The notes beneath the pieces were generated by a model. That model was not told where the DNA came from. It saw only the letters and a list, made by a program, of their open reading frames with translations, and ran no database searches. Shown piece after piece: positions 5,257-56,696 of a stretch of 64,000 nt of DNA. The translations under genes were made by a program, and so were the position numbers. Source of the stretch: a phage; NCBI GenBank assembly GCA_020241125.1, contig GCA_020241125.1_4708.1. The stretch is one strand, 5' to 3'. Each line of letters opens with the position of its first letter. Positions within the stretch are counted from its first letter, which is position 1.

Positions 5257-7815
5257 TTACTGCTCTTCACGTTCCAGCAGATACTCGGAAGCGGTAATAC
5301 CGTTTACCGTACGTACTGCTTTCAGACGAGTATCATCGCTCAGAATTACAGTAACAGATTGCAGACCTTTTACTTTGGTTTCGAAGGTCTTGAACACCTG
5401 ATCCAGCATACGAGCAATGCTTGGGTTGGTTGCAGCCGATGCGTGGGTGTAACCGCTTTGGTTCAGCTTCAGAATCTTGGCGTTGGTCGGTACGCGAACA
5501 ACAACATGCGGACGCATCGCGAACACGCTGTGATTGAACCAGTAAGCATCGTTGCTATCTTCGTCGGTAACGATGTCTGGATTAACACGCATATCCTCGA
5601 CAGCCGCATCCGCCAAACGACGTTCGATTTCATCGGCGTCCAGAGAGCCATCTTTCTCCAGTTCTGCACGATACTCACTCATGGCAACCAGATGACGTTC
5701 ACGATTCGCTGCGGATTTTTCGTGAGCGGCTTTCAGGTAGTCATGCATGTTGTACAGTTCTGCCATGGAAAGACGAATGTTCCACTGACCTTCGCCGTCA
5801 CGATTGCAGTAGAGACACTTCAGCATGTTGACCCAGGTATAGTAGCAATTGGAGAATTCATCTTCAATGAACTTCTGGTCCATTTTAAGATCGTGAATCA
5901 GCCAACCGGACAGTTCTCCGATATCATCAACGAAGCTAGAGATGGTGGTTTCAGAGAAGTTCTTCGGTACGATACGTTTGATCAGCTTATTGACGTCTTT
6001 GGTCATGCTATCGTTCAGGAAATGCCAAATACGCAGAGGAATAACATCTCGATACTGTTGCATGATCTGACGATAAGCTTTGATATCGTCGCTACGACCT
6101 TTATCAATAGACAACGCATCCAGGAATTCATGGATTGCATCCAGCTCTTTGTCGGTATAGGTTCCCAGATAGGAATTGACGGTGGCAAGGAATGCTAATG
6201 CGTCGTTTTGGTTAACGTCGGTGTTGGTCTGCTGAATGATTGCCACTGAAGCTTTGGTTTCAGCATCCTCAACGCTTGACGCTGCGATTGCGTCGGTGAC
6301 GGTAAACAGTTTCATTTCGCGCTGCTCACCGACAACGATTGGCTCACGTTGAACCGGTTTGTTAAGACTAACACGAACAACTTCTGCTTGCGCGATGCGA
6401 TCCAGTTTTGCCATTTCCTGCTCTGCCATACGACGAGCGGTTGGATCTGATTCAAGTTCGATGTATTCCACTTCTTCCTCCGTGAGGGATGTAATGTCAA
6501 CAATGGTTTCATGAAGAATTCCGTTTTCGTCGATACGTGCTCGACGAGCGAAGTGCCTGAAGTCATACAACGTCGGCCAACGACTATTAGGTGCAAAGTC
6601 TTTGGCTTTCAGACGCATCTGCATAAATTCTTCATGTTGAACAACACGACCGTAACGCTTAGCATCTTCGGTCGCATCAATTGGATTAACGGTCTTTGTT
6701 ACCGTAGCAGAACGAGCCGTACGAACGGGTTCCGGTTTCACCTGCGCAGGTTCAGGTTGAACGGGTTTCTGCTGCCCAGCCTTAACATGCCATTCTGGCT
6801 CTTCGTACTGCTCAGCAAATTGCTCAGCCGCTGCAAAGATATCGTTGATACCACCAATATCTCCTTCAGGATTTGTCGAGTAAATCCGTGGTTGTGGTGC
6901 CTCGTAACGCGGTGCTGTAGTAGCAGGTACCTCATCAACGATAGGATCGTCATCACCAACATCATACAAACGGTTGAACACACAATCCTTCGAATCAATG
7001 TACGATGGCGCTTGTGGTTGGACAACCGTCGGCCGAGGTTGTGCACCGTATCCTGGTGTTGTTGGAGCCATGCCGCGCATAACTGCCGGACTAGGTTGGT
7101 ATTGCGGTTGCGGATAGGTTCCACCATACATGGCGTACGCAGGCTGTTGTGGTTGACCATACCCGCTGCTAACCATCGCGCTTGCTTGCGGCCCACGATA
7201 AGTCATCCCCATCTGCATCACCTGCTGCTTCAAACCACGTGACTTCTGAGCGATTTGCGCTAGGCTTCCGCTTTTATTCAGCTGCGTGTACTTATTCGCG
7301 GCTTCCGGGTTAATGCGTGATAATTCAATCGCGCGATAATATTCCGGGTACTGATTCGGTTCAAAGAGCCACGTTACAAGATGATACAGCGCAACTGTAC
7401 TCACGGCAGCAGAGACGATCTGGTCATCGGACGCGTTCTGCGGCATCGGGTTGATGTAAGAGAACACGTTCCAACAACAGTCTTCAACAAGAGATTCCAT
7501 CATCATATCGTTATTGGTATAACGTGCGACGAACTCGGTTTGTATTTTGTCTTGCTGAGCGAAGTCTTTCAGGACATTAAAGATGGCTTGACGGATTTTG
7601 ACGATCGTCGCTTCTTGGGTGATGAAGTTATAGTTCTGCTGATATGAGGGTTGTTGGTATTGTGGTGGTTGATAGGCGTTATTCGGGTATGCGCCGTACG
7701 GCGATTGCTGATACTGTTGCTGACGAACCTGTTCAGCCGCATAATTAACCGTGCTCGTATAAGGGTTTTCGCTATAACCCATTTGTTGATACATGTTGTT
7801 ACTGCCATTATACAT
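5257..7815 (-). CDS. hypothetical protein (852 aa) with Gln/Tyr/Pro-rich low-complexity regions
   Basis: Long ORF; N-terminus MYNGSNNMYQQMGYSENPY...QPPQYQQPSYQQNY and internal GYGQPQQPAYAMYGGTYPQPQYQP. Confidence 0.8.
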   Translation of the reverse strand: MYNGSNNMYQQMGYSENPYTSTVNYAAEQVRQQQYQQSPYGAYPNNAYQPPQYQQPSYQQNYNFITQEATIVKIRQAIFNVLKDFAQQDKIQTEFVARYTNNDMMMESLVEDCCWNVFSYINPMPQNASDDQIVSAAVSTVALYHLVTWLFEPNQYPEYYRAIELSRINPEAANKYTQLNKSGSLAQIAQKSRGLKQQVMQMGMTYRGPQASAMVSSGYGQPQQPAYAMYGGTYPQPQYQPSPAVMRGMAPTTPGYGAQPRPTVVQPQAPSYIDSKDCVFNRLYDVGDDDPIVDEVPATTAPRYEAPQPRIYSTNPEGDIGGINDIFAAAEQFAEQYEEPEWHVKAGQQKPVQPEPAQVKPEPVRTARSATVTKTVNPIDATEDAKRYGRVVQHEEFMQMRLKAKDFAPNSRWPTLYDFRHFARRARIDENGILHETIVDITSLTEEEVEYIELESDPTARRMAEQEMAKLDRIAQAEVVRVSLNKPVQREPIVVGEQREMKLFTVTDAIAASSVEDAETKASVAIIQQTNTDVNQNDALAFLATVNSYLGTYTDKELDAIHEFLDALSIDKGRSDDIKAYRQIMQQYRDVIPLRIWHFLNDSMTKDVNKLIKRIVPKNFSETTISSFVDDIGELSGWLIHDLKMDQKFIEDEFSNCYYTWVNMLKCLYCNRDGEGQWNIRLSMAELYNMHDYLKAAHEKSAANRERHLVAMSEYRAELEKDGSLDADEIERRLADAAVEDMRVNPDIVTDEDSNDAYWFNHSVFAMRPHVVVRVPTNAKILKLNQSGYTHASAATNPSIARMLDQVFKTFETKVKGLQSVTVILSDDTRLKAVRTVNGITASEYLLEREEQ

Positions 7816-7849
7816 TTCTTACGATCCTTTTTATTTATTCGGTTATGTG

Positions 7850-9646
7850 TCAATCGATTATGTCGTGATCGTTAATTTCTACAATTTCTTCATCGAATCG
7901 ACCGACGTCTTTCTTCAAGCCTGCATTGGTTGCTGCAACGTCATTTGCAATTTGTGGGGTAATGATTAACCGACCGCGCTCATCGATAGGTGCGTACATA
8001 CTGAACTTCTGACGTCCGGTTGGTTCGGAGTGTGGAAGATTCAGATAGCTTGCACAGAACGGGATGGAACCACTAACCAAACGACTCTCGTCAGCCAATG
8101 CAGCACCGCCTGCGTTTTGGCTCTGGAGAACAACATGCGTGCTCACTTTGAACAGCATGCAATCACCTGGTGACTGAATCGATGTTGCCACTTTCTCACG
8201 TTTATCACGATTGCTCTGGATATTGAGAATCGCTTCCGTTGCAACTTGATTTCGCAACGCCTTCTGTACATCGCGATTGGTCATCTCTTTACGGTTGTTC
8301 TGTCGTTTACCACGTTCTGTGGTTTTAAGATGGAACCCCAGTTTAAAGATGCTCTTACGCACATCCTCCATGACATATTCCAACACCATCAATTCCTTAC
8401 CGAACATCGTCGTGGTATCAACACGACTCATTTCGATAGTGACATTGTCAATCAGATACGCCATAAATTCGTAGAAGTCGTCGCAAGGAATATTTTCCTG
8501 TTTGAACTTCTTCTGCTGAATCTCGTCAACGTAAAGATCGAGACTGTCGATGTGGTGATTTACATCACGTAACAAACGCGCATCCGCGTTGTTGTTATTA
8601 AAGATAATCAAACCGAGTAATGTACGCCAATGGTCTGGCGCATTCGCGAACTCCTCAACCGGATAGTCTTCCGGAAAACGATCGTAATAACGGTCGATGA
8701 GATACAAGAATGCACCGACAAGGCCAAGAACAATACGTTCCGTGCCTCCGCGTCTTACAGCAATTTGAATATCAGGATGTTTGTAACGTACAGCGCTAGC
8801 GCTACGGCTTTTACCGCTTTTGCTGATACTAAAGCCTTTAGGAATAACCCCCATGGTGCGATAGATTACCCATTGGTCACGCGGAAAATCGCGTTCAGCA
8901 AGGTTCCGTCCGGTTACGGCTTCGACACCTGCAAAACGTCGGAAACACTCACCCACCCCATACTTCGCAAAGAGATAGTGACCCAGTGTGGTTACGCTGG
9001 TGTGGTTGATGTTGTCACCGTTCACTTTACTTTGTTTAGTAAGATGGTAGATTTGCGACCAGGGTAACGACAGGTAATGACGATAATCGATACCGGTCGG
9101 TGTATCATTGCTCAGGAACTGATACGGTGTACGTTTAACCGTGATTTTGTCACGCGGAAGCATGATGAACGCCATGTCTTTCGTGTAACTGATTACCGGG
9201 TCAGCGAGCACTGCACTGAGAATGAAGTTCGCACCACGTAGACGCATTTTACCACCCTGACCTACCGCGGGTAATAGGAGAGGATGTCGGATAATGCAGT
9301 AGTCCTTTCCGGGTTCACGACGGTCACCTGATTCCATCGCGCCGTACCAGCGGAATTCTAGCATCACCATAAACACATCGGATGGCGCAAGGTCGAAGGT
9401 CAGCTTACCGCTATCCTTCCCTTTGGTTTTCTTTCCTCCGCTTAAGTAGTGGAACTGTTCGCGGGCCATACAGCGACGCAGGCCATGATACACCAGATCC
9501 TTAGGTAAACTATCTTTGCTGTTCCGCCAAAGACGATCAACATAGGACTCAACATCTTGCATCTTATCGACGACGATGTTGCGTGCTATCTTCTCGTTCA
9601 TCTTCGGTGCAAGCCCAGCGACAGCTTTGCAGAATCTAGGATCCAT
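7850..9646 (-). CDS. hypothetical protein (598 aa)
   Basis: ORF-track start is GTG at 9649; ATG at 9646 has AAGGAG 6 nt upstream. Confidence 0.8.
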   Translation of the reverse strand: MDPRFCKAVAGLAPKMNEKIARNIVVDKMQDVESYVDRLWRNSKDSLPKDLVYHGLRRCMAREQFHYLSGGKKTKGKDSGKLTFDLAPSDVFMVMLEFRWYGAMESGDRREPGKDYCIIRHPLLLPAVGQGGKMRLRGANFILSAVLADPVISYTKDMAFIMLPRDKITVKRTPYQFLSNDTPTGIDYRHYLSLPWSQIYHLTKQSKVNGDNINHTSVTTLGHYLFAKYGVGECFRRFAGVEAVTGRNLAERDFPRDQWVIYRTMGVIPKGFSISKSGKSRSASAVRYKHPDIQIAVRRGGTERIVLGLVGAFLYLIDRYYDRFPEDYPVEEFANAPDHWRTLLGLIIFNNNNADARLLRDVNHHIDSLDLYVDEIQQKKFKQENIPCDDFYEFMAYLIDNVTIEMSRVDTTTMFGKELMVLEYVMEDVRKSIFKLGFHLKTTERGKRQNNRKEMTNRDVQKALRNQVATEAILNIQSNRDKREKVATSIQSPGDCMLFKVSTHVVLQSQNAGGAALADESRLVSGSIPFCASYLNLPHSEPTGRQKFSMYAPIDERGRLIITPQIANDVAATNAGLKKDVGRFDEEIVEINDHDIID

Positions 9647-9685
9647 CACACACTCCTTTCAGAAAGTTGCTTAAGCAGATTAAAG

Positions 9686-11122
9686 TTACTTTTTCGATGA
9701 CACTTTCTCAAGAATCTTGAAAAAGGTCATACCTATACCGACAACGGCCGCGGTTATGCTCGCAGCGGCTTTCCAAACATCGACGTTACGTTGACGTCGC
9801 GCTTCTTCCGCTTCACGTTGTCTTTTTGCCTCTTCATCACGTCGACGTATCTCAGCAGCAAACTCGTCGTGCTTACGTTTGGATTCTTCGTCTCGACGAC
9901 GAAGTTCAGCGACGAATTCTTCATGTTTGCGTTTAGCCTCGTCGTCACGACGTTTTAAATCAGCTTGATAATCTTCGTGTATTTGTCTACGTAGATCATC
10001 TTGACGCTTCATTTCGGCTTGGTGTTGTTCCATCCTACGTTTTTGTTCGTCTTTAAGCTGATCGAGTTCGGCTTTATGTTGTTCATCACGCAGCTTTGCG
10101 TCGGCGCGATGCGCCTCATGCATCTGTGCGATAACTGCCTTGTGTTCATCCGCCATACGTCGCATTTCAGCCATCACCCCTTTAAGGGTTTCTTCTGATG
10201 CCTTACGTTCGTAGCTACGTTGGTCGAAATCATTTTTGTAGGCTTCTTTTTGGATGGGGTCGCGCCAATGCAATGCCGATTCACGTGTCGGAAAAACATT
10301 GTACTTCCACATCTCTTTTTCCAAATCTTCGACCGGTACGAAGATGGAGTCATTATTCCCGAAGGTAACCAACATACCTGGCGCGCCTGCTCCATTCGTT
10401 GGTTTTATTTCGAACGCTTTCCCCAACACGTTAACCCATAAGCTATACGGATTATGAAAGTCGGGCGGCGTCCAATGGATAGTGAGTTGCGTTCCGAGAA
10501 TCCGGAAACCCTCTGTTTTTCCCGTCAAGCTCCGCGCGCACGTTGCGATGTAGGGGTGATCAATCCCTTTCGTAACGTGGTCTGCGCTTTTGTATTCTCC
10601 TTTAACTTTTACGATTGCCACGTTGATTTGCGCGACATAAGCGGGTTGATTAAAGTTCAGCGTGTTGAGGTCAATTTGACATATCTCATCCAGCGTATCG
10701 TACCAGTCTTGCTGGTCTAATAGACGCGGCATTTTCTCAGCGTTAACAATACGACGGATATGCGGTTTCCTTATCGCGTAACCTGTACCGTTTTTAACAC
10801 GGAGTATATCCCGACGTCTACCCGCGTAGACGAAGTTTCTGAATGCACCATTCGCATTAGATACGTCATGGCTGTCAACTATTACAGGACTACGAAATTT
10901 TGAACGTCGTACGATCCTGAATGTATTGCCGTCCTCAACCCTACCAGGAATGTACTGGAACATATTGTCGGAGGTGATAACCAACACGGTATGGCCAGAT
11001 TCATTAATACATGCCCATCCTAATTCCAGGTCATATAACGGTTCAGCATAACCGTCAATGCGATAAGCGTGCGTACCATCCCACGGTTCGAACGCGGTAT
11101 CACATATTGGCATGGAGGGCAT
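9686..11122 (-). CDS. tail-anchored coiled-coil protein with tandem 19-aa charged repeats and C-terminal transmembrane helix (478 aa)
   Basis: ORF-track start is TTG at 11128; ATG at 11122 has GGAGG 6 nt upstream; C-terminus ...RRRDEEAKRKHEEFVAELRRRDEESKRKHDEFAAEIRRRDEEAKRQ... then AAASITAAVVGIGMTFFKIL. Confidence 0.8.
   Translation of the reverse strand: MPSMPICDTAFEPWDGTHAYRIDGYAEPLYDLELGWACINESGHTVLVITSDNMFQYIPGRVEDGNTFRIVRRSKFRSPVIVDSHDVSNANGAFRNFVYAGRRRDILRVKNGTGYAIRKPHIRRIVNAEKMPRLLDQQDWYDTLDEICQIDLNTLNFNQPAYVAQINVAIVKVKGEYKSADHVTKGIDHPYIATCARSLTGKTEGFRILGTQLTIHWTPPDFHNPYSLWVNVLGKAFEIKPTNGAGAPGMLVTFGNNDSIFVPVEDLEKEMWKYNVFPTRESALHWRDPIQKEAYKNDFDQRSYERKASEETLKGVMAEMRRMADEHKAVIAQMHEAHRADAKLRDEQHKAELDQLKDEQKRRMEQHQAEMKRQDDLRRQIHEDYQADLKRRDDEAKRKHEEFVAELRRRDEESKRKHDEFAAEIRRRDEEAKRQREAEEARRQRNVDVWKAAASITAAVVGIGMTFFKILEKVSSKK
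9790..9960 (-). repeat. in-frame tandem repeat (~57-bp unit, about 3 copies) inside 9686..11122
   Basis: Repeated CGTCGTC...GAATTCTTCATGTTTGCGTTT units encoding RRRDEE(A/S)KRKH(E/D)EF(V/A)AE(L/I). Confidence 0.7.
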
Positions 11123-11272
11123 CGTCAACCTCCATCAGATTGAAAACTATCACGCATAATACATTTCCCTTTTCTTGTTCTTATCGAGCCGACAGCCGAC
11201 GGTTTCAGCATCGTTCCTAGCGCGAGAACGACCTTACGTGTTGTCTATGCCTTATTCATCGCAGGCGTCTGT

Positions 11273-11296
11273 CACCTAGGTAATGTAAGCGTCAAA
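11273..11296 (-). promoter_or_regulatory. conserved ~31-bp motif, copy 1 (candidate phage promoter)
   Basis: CACCTAGGTAATGTAAGCGTCAAA on plus; lies between hairpin 11322..11370 and start of 9686..11122. Confidence 0.4.
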
Positions 11297-11321
11297 TTTT
11301 TTCTATTCGCAACAATAAACG

Positions 11322-11370
11322 GCATAGAAACCTCCCCCAACCCTTGCGGGCTGAGGGAGGCTGACTTATG
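11322..11370. terminator. GC-rich palindromic hairpin family member downstream of putative MCP gene
   Basis: GGCATAGAAA-CCTCCCCCAACCCTTGCGGGCTGAGGGAGG-CTGACTTATG. Confidence 0.5.
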
Positions 11371-11459
11371 TATCACGGTGCCGGATGAATGTCCGGTGCA
11401 ATGAAACCATCCGCAACGTTGTCGTCAAGAATATCATCCAACGAAGCAGCTACGGTAGT

Positions 11460-13682
11460 TCAGTTAGTCTGAACAGGCAGCTTGATGTTTTCAGTGTAGA
11501 CCTTACGCAGGTTCACAACGTTAATCAGACCCAGCAGCGGGCAGTTGTTAACGAAGCGGCAGCGCGGCTGAACCATGGTTTCTTTAGAAACCTGACCGTT
11601 ACGGGTAACCTGAGCAACAGATACCAGTTCCGGTACATACAGGAACATACCGAAGGTCAGCGGATCCGGAGAACCCTGGATACCACGAGACAGGGTCACG
11701 AAGATCTTATCGCGCAGCATGACGTTCGGGTTATCTACAACTACGAAGTTGAAGCTTACACCAACGGTACGGAAATCACCATCGGTCTGCAGGAACTGCG
11801 GGATGTAGTTGTCAGTTGCTACTACGCAACGCGGTTTCTCATCAGCGTTGGAAGACAGCAGCTGCAGAGCTGGCTGATAACCAGACTCGGAGTACATGCG
11901 GTATGCCATCTCACGAATCACGTTCATGATCGCAGCAGACACTTCAGCACGACGTTCTGCAGTGGTGGTACCCTGAACAGATTTCTCCAGGTCCAGATTG
12001 ATTTCTTCGAACCACGGACGGATCAGGTAACGACCGAAACCTTCGATCTGGATGTCACCGAACTGACGGAAGCGAGAGGTCGCAACCGCTTTCAGTGCGT
12101 CTTTGTAGCTGAACAGTTTCTCAACCATCAGGTTGTCGAAACGTGCGTTAGCAGCTTGGATCAGAACGTCCAGGTCAGCAGCGTTTTCTTCCCAATCCAG
12201 CGGACGAGGAATGGAGAACGGAGCCAGCAGGCCGATTGCGTAACGTTCTTGCTTCATGTTGAAGTCAAGGTGCTTACCGCGCTCACGACGGTTGCTGTTG
12301 TTACGGCGGATACGCAGTTCGTAACCAACCAGTTTGAAGCTCAGGTCTTCAGCCAGTTGTTTGAACTCTTCGCTCTTACGCGGTTGTTCGATGTTGTCCT
12401 GATCAACCAGGCGATACAGTTCAGCGTTAGCGCCGTTAACACGCAGACCGGCTTTCTCTACGTTGGAAGAACCGTAAACTTCGATCGCCAGCTGAGCAGC
12501 AGATTTCGCATCGATGATGTCCTGCAGCGCTTCAGCTTTCGCGCCTTTAACGTCTTTGGTGTTCTCATCAACGAAGATGGAGTGGGTGTCGAACGCCAGG
12601 GTCATTTTGCGGAAGTCGCCTTCCAGGGATTTCTGGAAACCGTTGGTGATCAGACCAGATACGTCGAACGGTACGTAAGAGGTTTTGCTGTGCTTGGTAG
12701 ATTTGATTTCCACCAGGATTTTGGTCAGCGTGATCTGGGCGTCCAGCGCGTCGGTGTTGTCGCTGTAACCGTTAGCCAGGATGCTATCGTCTTCAGCAAT
12801 ACCGATCATGTCGATCAGTTTATCAACAGCCAGGTAAGACGTTTTGTAAGTTACGCCTTTAATTTCGATGTCGCGCGGAGCAACGATAGCTTTGTCAACG
12901 AAGTACTGTGCGTTAGCATCGTCAGCACGATAGATCGGATGCAGATCGGTCACGTCGTTGGACAGAACGTCGTTGTACATGAACGCATCCAGCAGCGGAC
13001 GACGTACCCAATCAGCCGGAGTACCGTCAGCGTTACGACGCAGGTGGTTGAACACCAGCGGACGACGGAAAGATACGTCGTAACCGATCTGGTTCGGAGC
13101 CAGAACGATGGTGTTGTACAGTTCGTTACCCATGCGGCTCAGACGAGAAGCCTTCACGTTGAACACAACGGAGTACGGCATCATGTCACGCAGTTCTTTC
13201 TGGTCGTAGGACAGCTGAACCAGTTCTTCAGATTCGCAACCGCAGGAATCAGCAGCCATCATGACGAAGTTAGAGCTGTCAACTTCACGGCCAGACGGAG
13301 TGGTGCTGATGTTCATGGAACGTGCTTGTTTAGCATATTCTACCGGGTTACCATGAGCCAGCATGATCAGTGCTGCTGCACGAGCCTGCTGTGCGTTCAT
13401 GGTGAACAGCTGTTCTTCAATACGCTGCTTCTCTTCCGGAGTGGTGGTTTCGAAGCCCAGCATGGACAGAACCGGTTCTTCGGCTTTACGGATGTCGCTG
13501 CTGAAGCTCTTAACATCCATTTCGTTAACCAGTTTGTCCATGGATTTGAAATCAACCTTAGAAGCAGATTCCATAGACAGGAAGGTGTTCTCCAGACCTT
13601 TGTCTGCTGGTTTGCTACCATTAGCGGTCAGGAACTGGCGAGTGGCCGCGACCTGTTGGCTAAGAAGGGTTTTATCATTCAT
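11460..13682 (-). CDS. putative major capsid protein (740 aa; size comparable to phiKZ-type MCP)
   Basis: Strong host-optimal codon usage suggesting high expression; AAGGA SD 8 nt upstream of ATG; functional call from size and codon usage only. Confidence 0.5.
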   Translation of the reverse strand: MNDKTLLSQQVAATRQFLTANGSKPADKGLENTFLSMESASKVDFKSMDKLVNEMDVKSFSSDIRKAEEPVLSMLGFETTTPEEKQRIEEQLFTMNAQQARAAALIMLAHGNPVEYAKQARSMNISTTPSGREVDSSNFVMMAADSCGCESEELVQLSYDQKELRDMMPYSVVFNVKASRLSRMGNELYNTIVLAPNQIGYDVSFRRPLVFNHLRRNADGTPADWVRRPLLDAFMYNDVLSNDVTDLHPIYRADDANAQYFVDKAIVAPRDIEIKGVTYKTSYLAVDKLIDMIGIAEDDSILANGYSDNTDALDAQITLTKILVEIKSTKHSKTSYVPFDVSGLITNGFQKSLEGDFRKMTLAFDTHSIFVDENTKDVKGAKAEALQDIIDAKSAAQLAIEVYGSSNVEKAGLRVNGANAELYRLVDQDNIEQPRKSEEFKQLAEDLSFKLVGYELRIRRNNSNRRERGKHLDFNMKQERYAIGLLAPFSIPRPLDWEENAADLDVLIQAANARFDNLMVEKLFSYKDALKAVATSRFRQFGDIQIEGFGRYLIRPWFEEINLDLEKSVQGTTTAERRAEVSAAIMNVIREMAYRMYSESGYQPALQLLSSNADEKPRCVVATDNYIPQFLQTDGDFRTVGVSFNFVVVDNPNVMLRDKIFVTLSRGIQGSPDPLTFGMFLYVPELVSVAQVTRNGQVSKETMVQPRCRFVNNCPLLGLINVVNLRKVYTENIKLPVQTN

Positions 13683-13831
13683 TGAAAGTATCCTTTACAG
13701 AATTAACTTATATAAGTCGGTCGATAGACCATAGCGTACACGCGTGCATGCGCCACTATAGTATCAGTAAACACTTACCGTTATTGAGGTCGTGATACAA
13801 CACTAAAAATGCCGCATAACTTTTCCCTACG

Positions 13832-16125: not shown

Positions 16126-16173
16126 GCGGTTCCCTCCTCCAACCCGTAAGGGAAGGAGGAGGGGTTATGACCG
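16126..16173. terminator. GC-rich palindromic hairpin family member between convergent genes, with adjacent A13 tract
   Basis: CCCTCCTCCAACCCGTAAGGGAAGGAGGAGGG with GTAA tetraloop; A13 at 16107-16119 gives a U13 tract after the hairpin for minus-strand transcripts. Confidence 0.55.
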
Positions 16174-18532: not shown

Positions 18533-18617
18533 GTTGAGCTCCTTGATTACGATAAGGATGATTGCGGTTTTGTGATGCTGGTAGGGCCCTAAACAAAGGA
18601 GCCCTACCAATATTGGG

Positions 18618-19391
18618 TTACTCAGGATCGGCGTAGAAATGGTGAGGATAGCCGGAGTACGATCCCGCGTTACCGGCTATGGATTCTTTCTGGGAATCGA
18701 CGACGAGCGCATAGAACTGTCGGGAATTTGTTAGCGTTGAGAAATAAGCGGAAAGGACTTTTTCATTCAACGCATCGCAAGGTAGACAGGTGCGACCGCA
18801 AAACGTCACGATACGGCCGTCGGGATAGATCTCACGAATCATTCTCCACTCACCGATATCCACTGGTGATGGCGCTGCTACACCACCTGTTATCGTTAAG
18901 TAACGATCGTACGTGGTATGGCATTCAGGATGAATATAGATCGGCTTGTTCGTTTCGACAGGTTCCGAAGTATCTCGACGACTAAGAAGCTCAACGACTT
19001 CAAGATAAATCGTTGGTAGATCGCGGAGAATACCGGTGCTACGACGTTTCTTTGTGATTCGCGGACGAATCTCGTTGAGAGCGTATTCGAGCTTACGTTC
19101 AGCTTCGTACGCATCGAGTTTTATCAGGCGACCCGGTTCATCGGAATGATCCTGAGTTACGTAAACGAAATACGCGTTGCCTTTTGCAGCGTGAAAGATT
19201 CGAGCGACCTTAAATGTTTCTACGGTACGATACCCAAGGCGCGATTGATTTTCCACAGGAGAAAATATCCAATGTCGTCCTTCGTCCGCCTCAACAATTT
19301 CGTTGAAACTATCCGTTTGTTCTGGGACCTGGTAGTCAGCCATTAATGTATCAAGAGCGTCGTCAGCCAGTTTGATGTAAATATCTGTCAT
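18618..19391 (-). CDS. hypothetical protein, paralog B of an HPxC/YPDG pair (257 aa)
   Basis: ORF-track N-terminus (GTG 19604) reads through the hairpin and motif; ATG 19391 has GAGGA 7 nt upstream. Confidence 0.75.
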   Translation of the reverse strand: MTDIYIKLADDALDTLMADYQVPEQTDSFNEIVEADEGRHWIFSPVENQSRLGYRTVETFKVARIFHAAKGNAYFVYVTQDHSDEPGRLIKLDAYEAERKLEYALNEIRPRITKKRRSTGILRDLPTIYLEVVELLSRRDTSEPVETNKPIYIHPECHTTYDRYLTITGGVAAPSPVDIGEWRMIREIYPDGRIVTFCGRTCLPCDALNEKVLSAYFSTLTNSRQFYALVVDSQKESIAGNAGSYSGYPHHFYADPE

Positions 19392-19447
19392 GTTTGTATC
19401 CTCGGCTATTAAGAGAAATTTACAGTGATAACAGTAACCGTTGTTAT

Positions 19448-19478
19448 CACCTAGGTAATGTAGTCGCGAAATAAACTG
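19448..19478 (-). promoter_or_regulatory. conserved ~31-bp motif, copy 2 (candidate phage promoter)
   Basis: CACCTAGGTAATGTAGTCGCGAAATAAACTG; between hairpin 19490..19531 and ATG 19391. Confidence 0.45.
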
Positions 19479-19489
19479 GGTTAGACAGT

Positions 19490-19531
19490 ATATGACCCTC
19501 TCCCAACCCGTAAGGGAAGGGAGAGGGAATA
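19490..19531. terminator. GC-rich palindromic hairpin family member
   Basis: CCCTCTCCCAACCCGTAAGGGAAGGGAGAGGG directly after stop of 19532..20899. Confidence 0.5.
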
Positions 19532-20899
19532 TTAAACGGTTGGACGAACAGTATTGTCTTTTTCTGGTGCAATCCATAACGTGACTGTACCATGGCATGT
19601 CCACTGCGGTTCACGCACAGAAGAACCTGCCATTGTAACAGCGCAATCGGTACGCATGATAACCCCGTATGCTTCGCAGAGATTGTTATCCTGCATCCAC
19701 ACAACTTTAGCGGGCATGCCAGGATACAACAAATCCATGTTTGCGTATTCCCACACCAACTGCATCGTTCTACCGCGTAATCCGGCAGTATTGCTTAATT
19801 CACGCCATCGGTTATCGGTTACGCGTCCCATCCCTTTCGCCACTTTCACGTTATCGCTACGTTCTTCAGTTACGTACTCGCTAACGTTTACGGTACGACT
19901 GATGATCGTATCACCCCCTTTTGATAATGTCATTCCCTGACTCATCTGACTTGCCGAAACAAAACGCCCACCCGCATTACCTAACAACGAAGCCGCGTTA
20001 TTGATGTCGCTTACCGACGCCCCTCTCGTACACGCAATTTCCACGTATTTGTCACGATTGATCCAGGTCTTGTCCATGCCCGGAAACATATCGGCAGGAT
20101 AGTTGTAAAAGATCGCCGTGCGCCGACCGTCAGAGAAACGGGTTTCGTCGTATAAGGGGTAGATATACAGATACGGGGATTGATAATAACAACCGACGTC
20201 AGCTGAATAAATACCGACCTGGTTCTGTATTTTATCTACGAGATCCATCGCATTGGTACCGTGTGGAAGAATAAGCAACTTGAATGGGTTGTCGTTATTC
20301 GGTGCAACAATATCCACACCCTGCATTTTGAATCCGGTGTCAGCTTCAACCGCAGAAAGTATCTTGCTGAATTCAAGTCGCAGTACATCCAGCACTTTCG
20401 ACCCAGTATAGTTCTCACCGGTTTCTGATTGCATGAAGCTTTCAAGAACAGGATCGAACAGTTGAAATTGAAGATCGACCATTTGTTCGTAGTCTTTCTT
20501 CGAAGAATCGGTTGCGGTACGTTCGTCGGTAGCGGACATACGACTGTCTACGGTTGTTAAACAAACCGCTCGGTAGACGTAAGCTTGTGCGGCATCGTCT
20601 ACGGTTTGGCGTTGTCCGCGCATCAGGCTGTACGCCTGCACGATGATGCGCATTTTAAGTTGTTGTTGGTACGGTAGAATGTATTTTCCGTAACTGCCGG
20701 GCGGGAACTTTACAGAGATATAGAGTTCATCTCCAGCGTTACGTTCATAGTCTCGATACGTGTGGACTTGAGTCACTAAAGGAACAGACACCGTCATTGA
20801 CGGCGTGATTAATTCCGCGGTGACTTTATACGCAACAGCAACTGCTTCCTGCGCAAATGTACCGATATACCGTCCTAACGGCGTCTGTTTGTAATCCAT
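19532..20899 (-). CDS. hypothetical virion-type protein (455 aa)
   Basis: ORF; stop of upstream gene 2 nt before ATG. Confidence 0.8.
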   Translation of the reverse strand: MDYKQTPLGRYIGTFAQEAVAVAYKVTAELITPSMTVSVPLVTQVHTYRDYERNAGDELYISVKFPPGSYGKYILPYQQQLKMRIIVQAYSLMRGQRQTVDDAAQAYVYRAVCLTTVDSRMSATDERTATDSSKKDYEQMVDLQFQLFDPVLESFMQSETGENYTGSKVLDVLRLEFSKILSAVEADTGFKMQGVDIVAPNNDNPFKLLILPHGTNAMDLVDKIQNQVGIYSADVGCYYQSPYLYIYPLYDETRFSDGRRTAIFYNYPADMFPGMDKTWINRDKYVEIACTRGASVSDINNAASLLGNAGGRFVSASQMSQGMTLSKGGDTIISRTVNVSEYVTEERSDNVKVAKGMGRVTDNRWRELSNTAGLRGRTMQLVWEYANMDLLYPGMPAKVVWMQDNNLCEAYGVIMRTDCAVTMAGSSVREPQWTCHGTVTLWIAPEKDNTVRPTV

Positions 20900-29336: not shown

Positions 29337-30621
29337 TGCTGGTTTCCTCAAGTTCGAGATGCGCGTCAAGATAATCATTAAGACCGTCGATGACGTCGCA
29401 GACAGTTAACAGGAATCGGGCAAAAGCAACCGCCTGGAAGCCGACGACGTTACGCGCGATACCCACACGTTGAACGATAGCGGATGCGGTGGTATCGTCG
29501 TTGTCCATCTGTTGTAGCAAACGCTCGTAAGGTTGAATCCATTCGTCCTGGTCGGCAAGGCCTGCTTCAAGACAACGTTTAAATTCCAACTGTCGTAGCG
29601 TAGACCATAATGTACTTAATGCGTTGATGATTGTATTGGTTCCGTCGATAACGTCGTTCAACGGTAAGAAACGGAATCCGTCTTTTGCTGATTGGAACGG
29701 TGCAGCCTCCCACACAACGCTGAATTGTGTTCCTGTTGCGTCTTCGATGTTGTGTAATTTAAGGTAGGAAGCACCAACAGGTGCGTCAACGACGATATCG
29801 TCTGTTCCGGTAGGCTTTAACGGCTTCTCGCATAACGCGTCGTTGATGACTTCGAGGATATTCTCCCAACAGGCTTCGTTTTCTGCAGCGATACCTTCTT
29901 TGTTATCCGCTGATGGTGCTTTTAGTAGCTGCATTAATAACGGATCGAGTTGACGATGCCATGCTGCGAGGATTCCTGTGTTCGTTACGATGTTTTCTGC
30001 GGTTTGTCGTAAATCAGCAATGCTGCTTACCGCACCGCCTTTCGGATGAAGATATCGCCAGTTGTAGGGAAAGTTCTCCCAGAATGCGTTATCTTCATCG
30101 ACGTCGTATTCGGAAATAGTTTTCAACGCAGCCGCTTTCTTTAATAACGGCTTCACCTGACGAACGAATCGACGATAACAGCGATTACAGATATCGATCG
30201 CATAGCGGTATAATTCGTTCATGTAAAGCCATAACGCTCGGGTTGCTTCTTTTGCGGTCTTGTCAAAACTTTCCATGTTCAAGCTCATCCCGCTGGAAGT
30301 TTCCTCTTCCAGACCCTCGATGATTTGGTTTGGGTCCATTCCCATTCCGGCTGCTGCGGTTGTTGCGATATGTTTGATCGTGCTGATATCGCGTTCTTCA
30401 ACTTCAGCCATGTTTGGGACAATATCCAGCCGGAGTTTATTTAATGTTTGAAGGTGTTGTTCACCTTCTTTCATCACCGTGTTTGTTTCGTCGATTGAGT
30501 GAAACTGATTCTCAATATTACTGGCATCGAGAATGTTGCCAGCGATACCGAACGATTCTACAGGTTCATCATCAATCCCTTGAAACAACGATGTCATGGG
30601 TTGTTGCAACACGTTTTCCAT
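29320..30621 (-). CDS. hypothetical protein, paralog family member (433 aa)
   Basis: ORF; N-terminal module RDISTIKHIATTAAAGMGMD resembles 30771 and 32070 products. Confidence 0.8.
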   Translation of the reverse strand: MENVLQQPMTSLFQGIDDEPVESFGIAGNILDASNIENQFHSIDETNTVMKEGEQHLQTLNKLRLDIVPNMAEVEERDISTIKHIATTAAAGMGMDPNQIIEGLEEETSSGMSLNMESFDKTAKEATRALWLYMNELYRYAIDICNRCYRRFVRQVKPLLKKAAALKTISEYDVDEDNAFWENFPYNWRYLHPKGGAVSSIADLRQTAENIVTNTGILAAWHRQLDPLLMQLLKAPSADNKEGIAAENEACWENILEVINDALCEKPLKPTGTDDIVVDAPVGASYLKLHNIEDATGTQFSVVWEAAPFQSAKDGFRFLPLNDVIDGTNTIINALSTLWSTLRQLEFKRCLEAGLADQDEWIQPYERLLQQMDNDDTTASAIVQRVGIARNVVGFQAVAFARFLLTVCDVIDGLNDYLDAHLELEETSNAADL

Positions 30622-30721: not shown

Positions 30722-30764
30722 CATAAAACCTTCCTCCAACCCAACAGGGAAGGAGGAAGGGATA
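30722..30764. terminator. GC-rich palindromic hairpin family member
   Basis: CCTTCCTCCAACCCAACAGGGAAGGAGGAAGG after stop of 30771..32060. Confidence 0.5.
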
Positions 30765-30770
30765 TAGTGG

Positions 30771-33426: not shown

Positions 33427-33472
33427 GCATAGAACCCTCTCCCAACCCGTAAGGGAAGGGAGAGGGGATATG
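33427..33472. terminator. GC-rich palindromic hairpin family member
   Basis: CCCTCTCCCAACCCGTAAGGGAAGGGAGAGGG (core identical to copy at 19496) after stop of codon-optimised 33489..34811. Confidence 0.5.
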
Positions 33473-41702: not shown

Positions 41703-41748
41703 AGCATAACCCTCCTCCAACCCAACAGGGAAGGAGGAGGGAATATGC
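41703..41748. terminator. GC-rich palindromic hairpin family member between convergent genes
   Basis: CCCTCCTCCAACCCAACAGGGAAGGAGGAGGG. Confidence 0.5.
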
Positions 41749-47867: not shown

Positions 47868-49178
47868 TTAGGCGATAATGGAGTCAAGAGTCGCTGCGGT
47901 TTTGAACAGATCGCTGTTCATTGTAGAAGAAAGGACTTGCTGAATTTCTTCCTGTTTAACCGCTTTACGAACCCCAGGACGAAGGATAAGCGTAACCATC
48001 TGTGAAAAGGTACGATTATTGTTCATCGCACTCAGCGTTTCATCGATTGTTTTGATGGCATCCAGCGTCATGGAACGAACATCGCTTGGGATATCACGAT
48101 CTTTCAAGCGTATAATTAAATCTTGTTTGATTTTACGGAATCGTTCCATGTCGTTATCGTAAATGCTGTATGTCGGATCTAACCAAACAGAAAGCGCGGT
48201 TACAGCGACAACAACCAACACGCCGATAGCACCAACAGAAGCTAAACCTATCGCCATCATAGAAGCTATAGTAGCATCCATGATGAAGGAGAGCCAGAAC
48301 ATCGTTTTGGACTTCACGGAGTCTTTGCTATAAAGCCGATACATTTTAGCAAGCCCGCTAACGAGATACTCCCCACCGCCATGACGCGTAGCGAACTGAT
48401 CAGCCATGAATTCGGAAGCAACGTCGGTATATCGTCCAGCGTTGTTTACGTTTCTTAACTGCATCGCTCTGTTAGACACGTAAACCGTGTACCAGACACT
48501 ACCGTCGTCTGAATCACTGATTTTGTCTACGTCGACGTTGGTATCCAACGTTTTGTTTAACGCTTTCGCCAGTTCGATACGTTTTACCTTATCGGTTGTC
48601 CCCAACAGTTCACGCTGTACGGTCATGATTGAGGCTTCGACACGAACCGTTTCCGACAATGTTTCAAGGAAGGTAAATGCGTGCCCGATTTCATGCAGCA
48701 TTATGGCTGCTTTTTCTTCCGGAAGAAAGGGTTCTGTCGCCGTTAGCAGTTCATACGTGATGGCAGAACGAATCTTCAATTCTTCAAAAATACCGTAAAC
48801 ACGACCTTTTTCTAAATCGACGTAACCGACAGGTGTATCTTTAATCTTCTTAAGGAGCGTAACACCATCAGCACCGCGCATCCATAACCGATGATAGTCT
48901 GCCAGGATTGTGTTGTTTGTCGAAATATCCGGCGGGTACACGTAGGCATTCATCCGGCCCATTTTCACGTCGACCGAGAATTCGATGTTCAACCCCGTAT
49001 AGCGTTTAACCATCTCGGTTAAACGACCGTCCTTGAAAACGTTTAAAACCTCTTTTTTATCCAGTCCCTGTTTGCTTCTGAAGAACTCGGTCATTTCCTT
49101 GAACAAGGAACCATCTTGAAACTTGATGGCCTCCATCGTTAATTCGTCATGACCATACACGCGTTGTAGTAATGACAT
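47868..49178 (-). CDS. putative membrane-associated HExxH zinc metallopeptidase, possibly M48/HtpX-like (436 aa)
   Basis: HEIGH motif (AAIMLHEIGHAF); candidate third-ligand Glu ~85 aa later (SEFMADQ); hydrophobic stretch FWLSFIMDATIASMMAIGLASVGAIGVLVVVAVTALSVWL. Confidence 0.6.
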   Translation of the reverse strand: MSLLQRVYGHDELTMEAIKFQDGSLFKEMTEFFRSKQGLDKKEVLNVFKDGRLTEMVKRYTGLNIEFSVDVKMGRMNAYVYPPDISTNNTILADYHRLWMRGADGVTLLKKIKDTPVGYVDLEKGRVYGIFEELKIRSAITYELLTATEPFLPEEKAAIMLHEIGHAFTFLETLSETVRVEASIMTVQRELLGTTDKVKRIELAKALNKTLDTNVDVDKISDSDDGSVWYTVYVSNRAMQLRNVNNAGRYTDVASEFMADQFATRHGGGEYLVSGLAKMYRLYSKDSVKSKTMFWLSFIMDATIASMMAIGLASVGAIGVLVVVAVTALSVWLDPTYSIYDNDMERFRKIKQDLIIRLKDRDIPSDVRSMTLDAIKTIDETLSAMNNNRTFSQMVTLILRPGVRKAVKQEEIQQVLSSTMNSDLFKTAATLDSIIA

Positions 49179-49399
49179 TGTACACTCTCTAAATTTACGT
49201 AAATTTAAGGGTTCATGGATCGGCTGGCCGCACCAATCACAATGTGTCCGCTGCTATGCAACGGCATTCATAGAAATACCTTTTGACGGTAACATCACCG
49301 TTCATACCCCAAGCAATAAGAGTGGTCGGTTAAAAACAACAGAACGTGAGGATGATATAGAAAATCACCTTTTAACACTTATTACGAGTTTATCAAGCC

Positions 49400-51151
49400 A
49401 TGAGCGAACAAGAACGAAAACCTAAGAAGAAACTGCTCGGTATTCAATGTCGACACATCAGCTATAACGAAGCGAACGATGGCAGCAAGAACGACCTCAT
49501 GATCGCAAAAGAGATCATGTTCTTCGATGATAATACGCAAGCGACGAACCTTCGCTTCTTCGAGAATTACAAACGTCCGTTTTGGGTGACGGTAGAGAGT
49601 AAACGTAAGAACAAATATAAAAAGGAAAGCGAGAAGCTCTCGCATGTGCGTCGCTACGATGTCCGCCAAAGCGAACTGGTTGAAAAGATCAGCTCGGTAC
49701 TTTATAAAAGACGTGCTGACGATAACACCCGTTTACAGCAGCTTGCACGGAGTCCATACCTCTATGGAACGGACGTTAGCGCCAGCTGTTATTTAAAAAC
49801 CCAGTACAACACAAAATGGCCGGAATACGTCGATAAATTACCCGCTTCCATTGCCTGTTTCGATATCGAAACCGACGTTGTCCACGGACACGGTAAGATC
49901 GTTTGTATGTCTATTACAATGGGATACAATGCGATACTTTGCTATACCAAGGACTTCGTTGGTCATATTCCGAATGCCATTGAGAAAACCCATGAGAAGA
50001 TTCGATATTACCTGGCCGAACGTCTGAATACCAAAGAAGATCCCCACGCATTCGAAAAATATCAGTACGATGTTCGAATCGTAGAAAGCCCGGCACAAGC
50101 GGTCATCCAATGCATGCAGAAGGTTCACGAATGGCAGCCGGATTATCTCCTTGGCTGGAATATCGCGTTCGATATTCCGCGCATGCTCCAGGCACTGAAC
50201 GAGGAAGGGTATCGTCCCGAGGATGTTTTCTCCGATCCCCGTATACCACCTAAATATCGTATTGCTCGCTGGGTACCACCGAAGACCGACAAGGTATCTG
50301 CTTCAGGTCGTAAAACCAACCTTACCCTTGAGCAAACCTGGCCGATGTTTTATACGATGGCTACGTATCAGGTTATGGATGCGATGTGTGGCTATAAGTT
50401 CGTTCGTTTAGGAAGACCGGATGAAGGACGCTATTCACTCGATGCGGTGTTAGAGCGAAATAAATGCCATACGAAATTAAAAGCTATTCCTGGTACAGAG
50501 GGGTTCACGGAGCTTGCCTGGCACGAAGAGATGCAAACGAACCATCAAATCGACTACGGCGTATATAACCTTTGGGATAACCAGGGTATTGAGGCGTTGG
50601 ACCAGAAAACAAAAGACTATTCGATGACCATCCCTATCCGTTTAGCGGCGTCGGATTTGAAAGATTTCAGTTCTAACCCTAAACGTATCTGCGATAAACT
50701 TTTCTTCGTTTATCTTAACCGTGGGGAAGTCATGGGATGTACCGCTGACGACATGACCCAGGAAGAAGATAAGTGGGTTATCTCACGAGCTGGACATATC
50801 GTCACATTACCATGCGATCTCATGGCTGACAACGGCATTCATCTCTTCTGGGATATGCCGAACCTGAGAAGTTATATCCGTCTATTCGTTGCAGACCTTG
50901 ACATTAGCAGTTCATACCCGAATGGGCAGATCCTGTTGAATCTATCCAGAGCGTGTGTTTTTCGCGAGCTCTCACGCATTGAGGGCGTCTCTGACTATCA
51001 ATTCAGGAAGTTAGGTATCAACTTTATTACCGGAGGTAAAACGAACGCTGTAGACTTCTGTAGAATCGTTTATAAAGCACCATCGATGTTTGAACTTTTA
51101 GAACATTTCGATGCAACGCGTCCAAAAGAGGAAGCGCGGACCATCGAATGA
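49400..51151 (+). CDS. family-B DNA polymerase N-terminal fragment: 3'-5' exonuclease domain plus polymerase motif A (583 aa)
   Basis: Exo I ACFDIETD, Exo II YLLGWNIAFDIPRML, Exo III YSLDAVLER, motif A DISSSYPN, degenerate motif B-like KLGINFITGG; ORF ends before any motif C (YGDTDS). Confidence 0.75.
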   Translation: MSEQERKPKKKLLGIQCRHISYNEANDGSKNDLMIAKEIMFFDDNTQATNLRFFENYKRPFWVTVESKRKNKYKKESEKLSHVRRYDVRQSELVEKISSVLYKRRADDNTRLQQLARSPYLYGTDVSASCYLKTQYNTKWPEYVDKLPASIACFDIETDVVHGHGKIVCMSITMGYNAILCYTKDFVGHIPNAIEKTHEKIRYYLAERLNTKEDPHAFEKYQYDVRIVESPAQAVIQCMQKVHEWQPDYLLGWNIAFDIPRMLQALNEEGYRPEDVFSDPRIPPKYRIARWVPPKTDKVSASGRKTNLTLEQTWPMFYTMATYQVMDAMCGYKFVRLGRPDEGRYSLDAVLERNKCHTKLKAIPGTEGFTELAWHEEMQTNHQIDYGVYNLWDNQGIEALDQKTKDYSMTIPIRLAASDLKDFSSNPKRICDKLFFVYLNRGEVMGCTADDMTQEEDKWVISRAGHIVTLPCDLMADNGIHLFWDMPNLRSYIRLFVADLDISSSYPNGQILLNLSRACVFRELSRIEGVSDYQFRKLGINFITGGKTNAVDFCRIVYKAPSMFELLEHFDATRPKEEARTIE

Positions 51152-51723: not shown

Positions 51724-51793
51724 TGAATGCTCCTAGTGGTTATGTCGATTGATCGATGTATTGATTTATGTTTGAAGGTGTTGTTCACCTTCG

Positions 51794-56597: not shown

Positions 56598-56665
56598 CTT
56601 GACATCCTTTTATATTGGATTGGTTGCAATTGTCTTAAATAGATGATAAGATATTTTGCTCTTAT

Positions 56666-56696
56666 CACTAAGGTAATGTAGTCGCGAAATAAACTG
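56666..56696 (-). promoter_or_regulatory. conserved ~31-bp motif, copy 3 (candidate phage promoter)
   Basis: CACTAAGGTAATGTAGTCGCGAAATAAACTG; between hairpin 56719..56770 and ATG 56597. Confidence 0.45.

Follow-up and report, generated by a model that had tools for sequence, protein, structure and literature searches.

In nucleus-forming phages the genome passes from a lipid vesicle to a nucleus with a protein wall, and capsids are assembled on the inner membrane; no phage-encoded membrane protein tied to the genome transfer or the capsid-assembly step was found in the literature searched. The Chimalliviridae core gene cg35, which comprises Goslar gp040, PhiKZ gp122 and RAY gp001, has been catalogued as "hypothetical" and as unique to chimallin-encoding phages (Prichard et al., PMC10299810 Table S3), and its orthologue in PhiPA3 is gene 138 (YP_009217217.1), annotated as similar to PhiKZ gp122. 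A gene assigned to this family, located in a phage DNA stretch of 64,000 nucleotides (nt) (GenBank assembly GCA_020241125.1, contig GCA_020241125.1_4708.1; the whole stretch is hereafter called the window), has been analyzed computationally. Its product combines an N-terminal domain, a long charged helix and a hydrophobic C-terminal end, and taken as a whole it might be an early, cytoplasm-facing, membrane-anchored spacer or tether near the nuclear shell, a reading to which somewhat less than even confidence is given.

Experimental data on several orthologues have been published. In PhiKZ, orf122 showed 0 disruptive transposon insertions, as did the neighbours within 120-124 (PMC12676376 supplement), and 19 of the 20 family-specific core genes of this phage were essential or strongly fitness-conferring (PMC12676376). 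Antisense oligomers against PhiKZ122 were both scored "+", and its depletion was among those strongly affecting phage transcription at 30 min (PMC12571901). Pulldowns with ChmA-GFP and with ChmB-GFP, and proximity labelling with ChmA, recovered the PhiPA3 protein (39.3 kDa), whose role the authors give as unknown (PMC10643120). Literature searches on Goslar gp40, orf122, tail-anchored or transmembrane Chimalliviridae proteins and PhiKZ co-fractionation returned nothing, and the literature searched yielded neither localisation data for Goslar gp40 nor transcription start sites of Goslar. In two papers the name "gp122" stands for unrelated proteins that are not cg35, and the identification of cg35 as an Imp import factor was considered and rejected, as Imp5 is orf287, a different gene.

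The window gene encodes a product of 478 amino acids (aa) that is 99.2% identical over all 478 residues to gp40 (HOV27_gp040) of Escherichia phage Goslar in a tblastn comparison, annotated in that genome as "hypothetical protein". The 5-kb stretch of DNA around the gene is 98.9% identical to Escherichia phage vB_EcoM_Goslar, a nucleus-forming jumbo phage. With very high confidence, the open reading frame (ORF) is the Goslar-clade version of the core protein cg35. The ATG at 11122 was taken as the start rather than the TTG at 11128, because a GGAGG lies 6 nt before the ATG and the TTG abuts it. The gene and its parts are the following:

9686-11122, minus strand: coding sequence of 478 aa plus stop (ORF list, tblastn, Goslar annotation, core-genome Table S3 of PMC10299810).
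11129-11133, minus strand: Shine-Dalgarno GGAGG, identified in the sequence, 6 nt ahead of the ATG at 11122.
10253-11122, minus strand: N-terminal domain, aa 1 to about 290, mostly beta by prediction and ending in the conserved [FY]xTxxEA motif (family alignment).
9776-10252, minus strand: charged alpha-helical stalk, aa about 291-449, with 54% D/E/K/R, an AlphaFold2 helix and ER/K-like statistics, about 23 nm long if fully helical.
9719-9769, minus strand: apolar segment aa 452-468 (AAASITAAVVGIGMTFF), 17 residues between K451 and K469, the protein-wide hydrophobicity maximum and a candidate tail anchor.
9689-9718, minus strand: short basic C-terminal tail KILEKVSSKK, aa 469-478, read from the sequence.

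Relationships with the other clades are distant. An exhaustive HMMER search of 1.84 billion representative proteins with the N-terminal domain retrieved its own cluster and two others only, with 31% identity (P0015, E 2e-23, and P0016, E 1e-21), and all three clusters adjoin a PhiKZ-type capsid gene. The proteins of P0015 and P0016, both metagenomic, consist of an N-terminal domain, a shorter and very ER/K-rich helix, 17 apolar residues framed by lysines and a short basic end, and their genes lie between a PhiKZ-type capsid gene and a polymerase gene of about 600 aa. P0016 matched phrog_7727, the RSF1/RP12/RAY family, at 1.5e-7, and P0015 matched phrog_7286 at 5e-5; PhiKZ gp122 is phrog_15024 and also matches phrog_7286, and these three cg35 families are all listed in PHROGs under "unknown function". 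Comparison by hhalign of the Goslar-clade N-terminal domain with those of Eowyn, RSF1, RP12 and PhiKZ gave 76% probability, an E-value of 2.3e-5 and 224 co-linear columns, whereas the window protein alone gave co-linear matches to the other-clade families only at E about 0.1, and the identity of its N-terminal domain to other cg35 clades is 13-16%. Homology of the window protein to PhiKZ gp122 and RAY gp001, remote and transitive, is supported by these comparisons, and the assignment to cg35 by Prichard et al. was made independently of them.

The genes found at the same position in other chimalliviruses encode proteins of 331-391 aa with a common three-part plan. Eighteen family members were sampled, namely three Goslar-clade sequences and those of 15 named phages (Eowyn, RSF1, RP12, PhiKZ, RAY, Xoo-sp14, FBKp24, Proteus phage 10, FLC9, PhiEaH1, Moabite, PDCC-1, PhiPA3, EL and PS2). 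A survey of one genome per bacterial species gave zero matches to cg35, and in this survey and among the 1.84 billion representatives the family was confined to chimallin-encoding phages. A search of 5.8 billion proteins retrieved Goslar-like sequences only, all with at least 83% identity, and locus searches with single cg35 proteins as query retrieved only near-identical phages. Assemblies listed as Salmonella enterica or E. coli O157 contain copies of the Goslar-like gene (P0006, P0008 and P0012-P0014), the contigs being up to 244 kb long; one gene variant was found on 29 contigs and one cluster contains 208 member sequences, and Goslar-like phages seem to be common in sequencing data of enterobacterial isolates.

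The N-terminal domain gave no match in Pfam, NCBIfam and PDB-sequence searches, which revealed no recognised fold or family, and searches of the gene and its region in Pfam, PHROGs, NCBIfam, PDB sequences and Rfam gave no informative match. Weak matches to phrog_1893 and FUSC covered the charged helix and the tail only and were treated as compositional. Residues 135-315 are invariant in the alignment of Goslar-like relatives. AlphaFold2 was run with the full-length protein and 11 close relatives, and with the N-terminal domain and two 31%-identical relatives.

An initial annotation, made from the sequence without database searches, had described an N-terminal domain of about 290 aa followed by about 150 aa of R/E/K/D-rich predicted coiled coil with about three tandem repeats of 19 aa encoded by near-identical 57-bp units. 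The division between the two parts stands, as residues 1-295 are unbiased in composition and residues 296-447 contain 27% D/E and 27% K/R, with a net charge of 0. Of the coiled-coil proposal, the helix was retained: AlphaFold2 predicted one unbroken helix over residues 289-475, with a predicted local distance difference test (pLDDT) score of about 80-94. The 3.5-residue hydrophobic a/d periodicity, however, was not found in the stalk, where the best hydrophobic period was 3.02, with low power. Moreover, the 18-residue repeat and the indels of 18 and 11 residues described below fit 3.6-3.67 residues per turn rather than heptads.

The linker from the [FY]xTxxEA motif to the hydrophobic end ranges from 54 aa in RAY to 170 aa in the window protein. 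In the latter, 52% of the residues carry a charge, only two are Pro or Gly, and i/i+4 pairs of opposite charge number 0.25 per residue. In the Goslar-clade linkers, charged residues amount to 48-58%, large hydrophobics to 13-18% and opposite-charge i/i+4 pairs to 0.21-0.27 per residue, and a 3.5-residue hydrophobic periodicity is absent. The features of an ER/K single alpha-helix, at least about 50% charged residues, dense i/i+4 pairs and an uninterrupted helix, are all present, and by its sequence the stalk looks more like a helix of this type than like a canonical coiled coil. Within each 18-aa unit L/A/F recur at positions 1/8/15, and aa 313-335 are heptad-like; this stripe and this segment could mediate oligomerisation. 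ER/K single alpha-helices are stiff spacers, and at 1.5 Å per residue the modelled stalk could hold the N-terminal domain more than 20 nm from the anchor.

Two repeat features were located in the stalk:

9797-10120, minus strand: array of about six diverged units in tandem, each 18 aa (54 nt) long, covering aa 335-442, detected by period-18 autocorrelation.
10013-10030 and 10067-10084, no strand assigned: two 18-nt direct repeats, 89% identical and 54 nt apart, found by repeat search, which bound the unit that the 460-aa relatives lack.

Autocorrelation of the charged region gave peaks at 18 and 36 only, with none at 19, and 0 of 2000 shuffles reached the same score even when the best period of each shuffle was allowed. 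The period is 18 aa (54 nt) instead of the 19 aa first proposed, and about six units are recognisable instead of three, beginning at aa 335, 353, 371, 389, 407 and 425. The three best-kept units (aa 389-442, nt 9797-9958) are LKRRDDEAKRKHEEFVAE, LRRRDEESKRKHDEFAAE and IRRRDEEAKRQREAEEAR, and neighbours among them have 13/18 and 9/18 identical amino acids and 35/54 and 29/54 identical nucleotides (54-65% in DNA). Tandem Repeats Finder applied to 9000-12000 reported no array even at score 30. The repeat units are old and diverged, not near-identical.

Comparison of repeat copy number among related phages, suggested with the first description, revealed that it does differ. The Goslar-like relatives are 460, 478, 489 or 507 aa long, and their alignment places exact indels of 18 and 11 aa inside the stalk: the 460-aa forms lack the 18-residue unit aa 348-365 (nt 10028-10081), the 507-aa form has one additional 18-residue unit, and the 489- and 507-aa forms have an 11-residue insertion. 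The middle of the stalk is variable in these relatives, whereas their last 53 residues do not vary. An 18-residue indel equals 5 helical turns and an 11-residue indel 3, and both keep the phase of the helix, which is an observation and not a proof of constraint, and the stepwise change in stalk length fits a spacer with a tunable exact length.

The single hydrophobic helix expected at the C-terminus was found at aa 452-468, the sole strongly hydrophobic stretch of the protein. All top hydrophobicity windows are located at aa 450-474, and the N-terminus is polar, with no signal-peptide or second transmembrane candidate. The segment has a Kyte-Doolittle mean of 1.82 over 17 residues (threshold 1.6) and an Eisenberg mean hydrophobicity <H> of 0.63 with a hydrophobic moment (muH) of 0.29, both in the transmembrane range. 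If it spans a membrane, the N-terminal domain and the stalk are cytoplasmic. A C-terminal hydrophobic helix is retained in 18/18 sampled members, and in 15/18 the hydrophobicity maximum of the protein, taken over 17-residue windows, is C-terminal. Segments of 16-17 uncharged residues framed by lysines are present in the three Goslar-clade sequences, RSF1, RP12, Xoo-sp14, FLC9 and PhiEaH1, and a shorter 13-residue uncharged version in Eowyn and EL. The lysine-framed segments are often preceded by a juxtamembrane motif R/K-x-x-x-[DE]-h-W/L-K and their apolar sequence diverges freely, and a fixed apolar length with a variable sequence is what lipid embedding predicts.

The expression context of the gene is defined by the following features:

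11460-13682, minus strand: major capsid protein gene (PhiKZ_MCP family), upstream of cg35 (PF25620, 5e-218).
11330-11361, minus strand: 14-bp GC-rich hairpin after the major capsid gene, terminator-like (RNA fold -36.2 kcal/mol, z -5.6), resembling by eye the hairpin families D1/D2 of the window.
11269-11308, minus strand: promoter-like motif in which TTACATTACCTAGGTGA (core 11272-11287) comes after an A/T-rich stretch, from the alignment of repeat family D4.
7850-9649, minus strand: gene of the beta subunit of the non-virion RNA polymerase (nvRNAP; Goslar gp39), downstream of cg35 (phrog_2943 "polymerase", 1e-119; tblastn to nvRNAP beta of 217 PhiKZ-like phages).

After the stop codon of the capsid gene, the order is hairpin, motif, a leader of about 146 nt and the ATG of cg35. 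The initial annotation had assigned to this gene one of three copies of a conserved 31-bp motif; the motif is indeed common to two further genes of the window, but it is placed upstream, about 146 nt before the ATG, and not within the gene. The sequence TAYATTACCT occurs exactly 3 times in the window against 0.12 expected, always on the minus strand and upstream of genes, and an A/T-rich stretch followed by TTAYATTACCTWRGTGA was found at 11272-11287, 19447-19462 and 56665-56680, and in the Goslar record at 172963-172979 and 160776-160792. In the window it precedes cg35, a 257-aa ORF (18618-19391, minus strand) and a 141-aa ORF (56172-56597, minus strand; Goslar gp075). In the genome of Goslar, the nuclear shell gene chmA has the identical 17-mer, with the matching A/T-rich stretch before it, about 75 nt upstream, and a copy with two mismatches is upstream of gp175, the nvRNAP sigma-like gene (cg11); 0.05 such matches were expected by chance, and weaker copies are located ahead of another nvRNAP subunit gene. 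Scanning the whole collection for the motif gave mainly chance matches.

The PhiKZ chmA gene bears an early-promoter motif (PMC8244752), and such phages typically have conserved early motifs that their virion RNA polymerase recognises (PMC7598289). By analogy, the motif is probably an early promoter for the virion RNA polymerase, and it is a candidate early-promoter consensus for Goslar-like phages. The gap between cg35 and the nvRNAP beta gene is 4-52 nt in all genomes and 37-40 nt in the window, and a minus-strand terminator search of 7600-11500 found none between the two genes. Both genes are probably co-transcribed because of this short gap and the lack of a terminator between them. The hairpin at 11330-11361, as modelled, would act in a terminator-like manner to separate the capsid transcript from the cg35 gene. 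Because the motif is shared with chmA and gp175, the PhiKZ chmA gene has an early motif, and the hairpin precedes cg35 while no terminator follows it, cg35 is quite probably, by analogy, expressed early, along with the shell protein and nvRNAP.

The order capsid gene, cg35 and nvRNAP beta gene, all on the same strand, was found everywhere both flanks are visible, in about 16 genera; the linear records of RAY and Proteus phage 10 begin with this gene, and the polymerase side alone is visible there. A small extra gene between the capsid gene and cg35, overlapping the cg35 start, is present in PhiKZ (gp121; L010 8709-9161) and PhiPA3 (gene 137; L147 147-680) and absent from the other sampled clades, and PhiKZ orf121 also lacks transposon insertions. 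A 766-aa open frame on the plus strand (11385-13685), antisense to the major capsid gene and with an odd low-complexity translation, is almost certainly a non-coding mirror ORF. No sigma-70-like promoter match was found in 7600-11500, where 5.9 +/- 2.5 were expected from shuffles, in keeping with transcription that does not depend on the host RNA polymerase.

GC-rich palindromic hairpins (CCCTCCTCC...GGGAAGGAGGAGGG followed by TAT/TATG) recur in the window at 16130-16168, 19494-19532, 30727-30765, 33433-33471, 41708-41746, 63406-63444 and 11330-11361. The two inspected, at 19494-19532 and 11330-11361, are each directly before a promoter-like motif, and the recurrent hairpins are probably the intrinsic terminators of the phage. 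Around the second motif copy, comparison of the window at about 18600-19700 with Goslar at about 48900-49800 revealed that the coordinate offset shifts by about 1.95 kb between gp40 and gp75, which reflects an indel or a difference in gene content between these phages. This copy is followed by the 257-aa ORF in the window and by the short genes gp046/gp047 in Goslar, where the motif lies inside the annotated gp047, which is possibly mis-annotated. Other repeats of the window are a 31-nt pair at 30441-30471 and 51765-51795 (94% identity) containing the small hairpin GAAGGTG...CACCTTC, and an exact 22-nt pair at 30231-30252 and 59396-59417.

A mechanism can be proposed from these elements. After early synthesis, the C-terminal helix would insert post-translationally in the lipid bilayer of the host inner membrane or of the early-infection (EPI) vesicle, and the N-terminal domain would stay cytoplasmic, up to about 20-25 nm out on a stiff ER/K-type helix; this part of the proposal, anchoring with a cytoplasmic N-terminal domain, is moderately probable. 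The N-terminal domain would then contact the ChmA shell during its assembly, on the cytoplasmic face, or partners of the shell, and the protein would work as a spacer or tether from the membrane to the phage nucleus during the vesicle-to-nucleus stage. Such a function would fit an early type of promoter, a gene confined to one family and apparently essential, the effect of depletion on transcription and the proximity to ChmA, each of them an indirect link, but the contact with ChmA and the tethering itself are doubtful. In its boldest form, which is distinctly unlikely, cg35 would be the first phage-encoded membrane-embedded tether of chimalliviruses: made from mRNA of the EPI vesicle, it would capture the nascent ChmA shell about 20 nm out and position it for genome hand-over from the lipid compartment to the protein nucleus, the length of the stalk, tuned by steps of 18 and 11 residues, setting the gap between both compartments.

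Several findings weigh against the proposed membrane tether. The simple Hessa sum of the apolar segment is +1.35 kcal/mol, which is borderline, the segment is short (17 residues) and rich in Ala/Gly/Ser/Thr, and the 10-residue tail has a net charge of +3, unfavourable for translocation. In 8/18 sampled members (PhiKZ, PhiPA3, RAY, FBKp24, Proteus phage 10, Moabite, PDCC-1 and PS2) the C-terminal helix is amphipathic and interrupted by K/D/E, so a true membrane span is not a property of the whole family; judging from their sequences, these versions would attach to the surface of a membrane or of a protein and not cross a bilayer. The N-terminal domain had a pLDDT of 42-50 in both AlphaFold2 runs, made with a shallow alignment, so that its interaction surface is not predictable, and the promoter class of cg35 is assigned by analogy. 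Regarding the orthologues, the knock-down and transposon phenotypes of PhiKZ could stem from polarity on gene 123, the essential nvRNAP gene next to it, and the PhiPA3 pulldown signal was weak, with 1 peptide in the ChmA-GFP sample, in a member with an amphipathic tail (PMC10643120). The membrane-anchored stalk of the initial annotation is still the best reading for the Goslar clade, given the K-16/17-K frame in ten relatives and the long predicted helix, but it does not extend to about half of the wider family. What the family has in common, as far as sequence indicates, is a C-terminal hydrophobic attachment helix, and a true tail anchor is plausible only for about half of the members, the window phage included.

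The explanation that survives best besides the membrane tether, although unlikely, is that the C-terminal helix docks in a protein, such as the ChmA lattice or ChmB, and not in lipid, and that cg35 resides in the shell with its N-terminal domain projecting to the cytoplasm. The recovery of the PhiPA3 orthologue with ChmA and ChmB and by ChmA proximity labelling would be expected of such a protein, as would the charge-interrupted helices of half of the family, unable to span a bilayer, and the two faces of the Goslar helix, one small/polar and one bulky (muH 0.26-0.29). Against this, the helix sequence diverges between clades while hydrophobicity is kept, along with the K-16/17-K length in ten members, a pattern typical of lipid embedding, and amphipathic helices bind membranes too.

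Chimallivirus capsids assemble on the inner membrane, where partially assembled capsids have been seen (PMC12908238), and cg35, with its membrane-anchor-like tail and a capsid gene adjacent in every genome with a visible upstream flank, might instead anchor or initiate procapsid assembly. This role is improbable: a strong hairpin separates cg35 from the capsid gene, the promoter motif is common to chmA and nvRNAP genes and not to late genes, with no terminator before nvRNAP beta, and the change in transcription at 30 min after the PhiKZ knock-down is unexpected of an assembly factor. Furthermore, the gene is chimallivirus-specific and membrane-initiated head assembly is not. A position in the virion is not indicated by the sources consulted either. 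A PDB sequence search with the family profiles, among entries that include nvRNAP structures and the PhiKZ capsid model PDB 8Y6V, matched no chain; the accessible parts of the text and supplements of the Goslar virion preprint on cryo-electron microscopy and mass spectrometry do not mention the cg35 protein; and the annotation of PhiKZ gp122 lacks the "structural" note of its neighbours.

A soluble accessory factor of nvRNAP, involved in its assembly, import or regulation and using the hydrophobic C-terminus as a protein-interaction element, would explain the tight linkage of 4-52 nt to nvRNAP beta in all genomes and the strong effects on transcription of knocking down PhiKZ 122 and 124, which flank 123. 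It is quite improbable, as no solved nvRNAP structure, and no PDB entry at all, contains a member of the family, and the PhiPA3 gp62 pulldown gave all five nvRNAP subunits with no report of the cg35 protein among them. Neither is cg35 among the known import factors, and a long ER/K stalk with a K-17-K apolar end would have no obvious role in such a factor.

The tandem repeats had also been taken to make the stalk prone to variation, and cg35 might accordingly be a contingency-type gene whose stalk length changes often by slippage of near-identical DNA repeats. Length variation is real on an evolutionary scale, with relatives differing by exact 18-aa units and one deletion bounded by the 18-nt direct repeats 54 nt apart, but frequent slippage is very improbable with units 54-65% identical in DNA and an empty Tandem Repeats Finder result. 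Just four length classes occur among sequences 83-98% identical, and the window and Goslar proteins are both of 478 aa. A spanin-like or holin-like lysis protein, suggested by the helical rod with one hydrophobic segment, is extremely improbable, since the C-terminal position of that segment with 10 residues after it makes the rod cytoplasmic, opposite to the i-spanin topology, no endolysin, holin or o-spanin gene is a neighbour, the promoter motif is of the early type, and this is a core gene linked to nvRNAP.

Three observations make cg35 a concrete candidate for the membrane-linked steps of the infection, namely a bilayer-length apolar helix on a long charged stalk in many clades, an early promoter type apparently shared with chmA and a PhiPA3 orthologue recovered near ChmA; if the tail does not bind membranes, cg35 would point to a stalked, shell-associated protein. 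The gene family itself is already catalogued and uncharacterised. In the literature searched, the three-part architecture, the K-16/17-K ending in about half of the family, the ER/K stalk of 18-residue units with its 18- and 11-residue variants and the promoter motif shared with chmA were not found described.

Among the described proteins, PhiKZ gp122, the PhiPA3 gene 138 product and RAY gp001 have in common with the window protein the position between capsid and nvRNAP beta genes, remote homology in the N-terminal domain, the three-part plan, the restriction to the family and probable essentiality. The stalk of the Goslar clade differs from that of other cg35 proteins in being two to three times longer (170 vs 54-101 aa) and formed by 18-aa ER/K-like units, and its end is an uninterrupted apolar segment of 17 residues, whereas the ends of PhiKZ, PhiPA3 and RAY are charge-interrupted and amphipathic. 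The E. coli proteins ElaB, YqjD and YgaM (DUF883) are bacterial C-tail-anchored inner-membrane proteins. They are alike in having a cytoplasmic charged helical region, one C-terminal hydrophobic segment, a very short basic end and no signal peptide, but the window protein is phage-encoded and much larger, with an N-terminal domain of about 290 aa and a longer stalk, and the DUF883 Pfam model did not match the whole protein or its C-terminal 180 or 54 aa, even at E<=10.

Single alpha-helix spacers of the ER/K type occur in myosin VI/X and caldesmon. The stalk resembles them in its content of more than 50% E/K/R/D, dense i/i+4 opposite-charge pairs, few hydrophobics and a predicted uninterrupted helix, and differs in the L/A/F stripe of each 18 residues and the heptad-like aa 313-335. 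The lambda i-spanin Rz also combines one membrane segment with a helical rod; its transmembrane segment is N-terminal, its rod periplasmic and its gene in a late lysis cassette, whereas the window protein has a C-terminal segment and capsid and polymerase neighbours. Golgins such as giantin and golgin-84, and KASH-type linkers, are tail-anchored rod-like tethers of eukaryotes. As an analogy of mechanism only, they are C-terminally anchored helical rods that hold a binding domain tens of nanometres off a membrane to capture another compartment; the window protein has no homology to them, its rod is ten or more times shorter, and tethering is hypothetical in its case.

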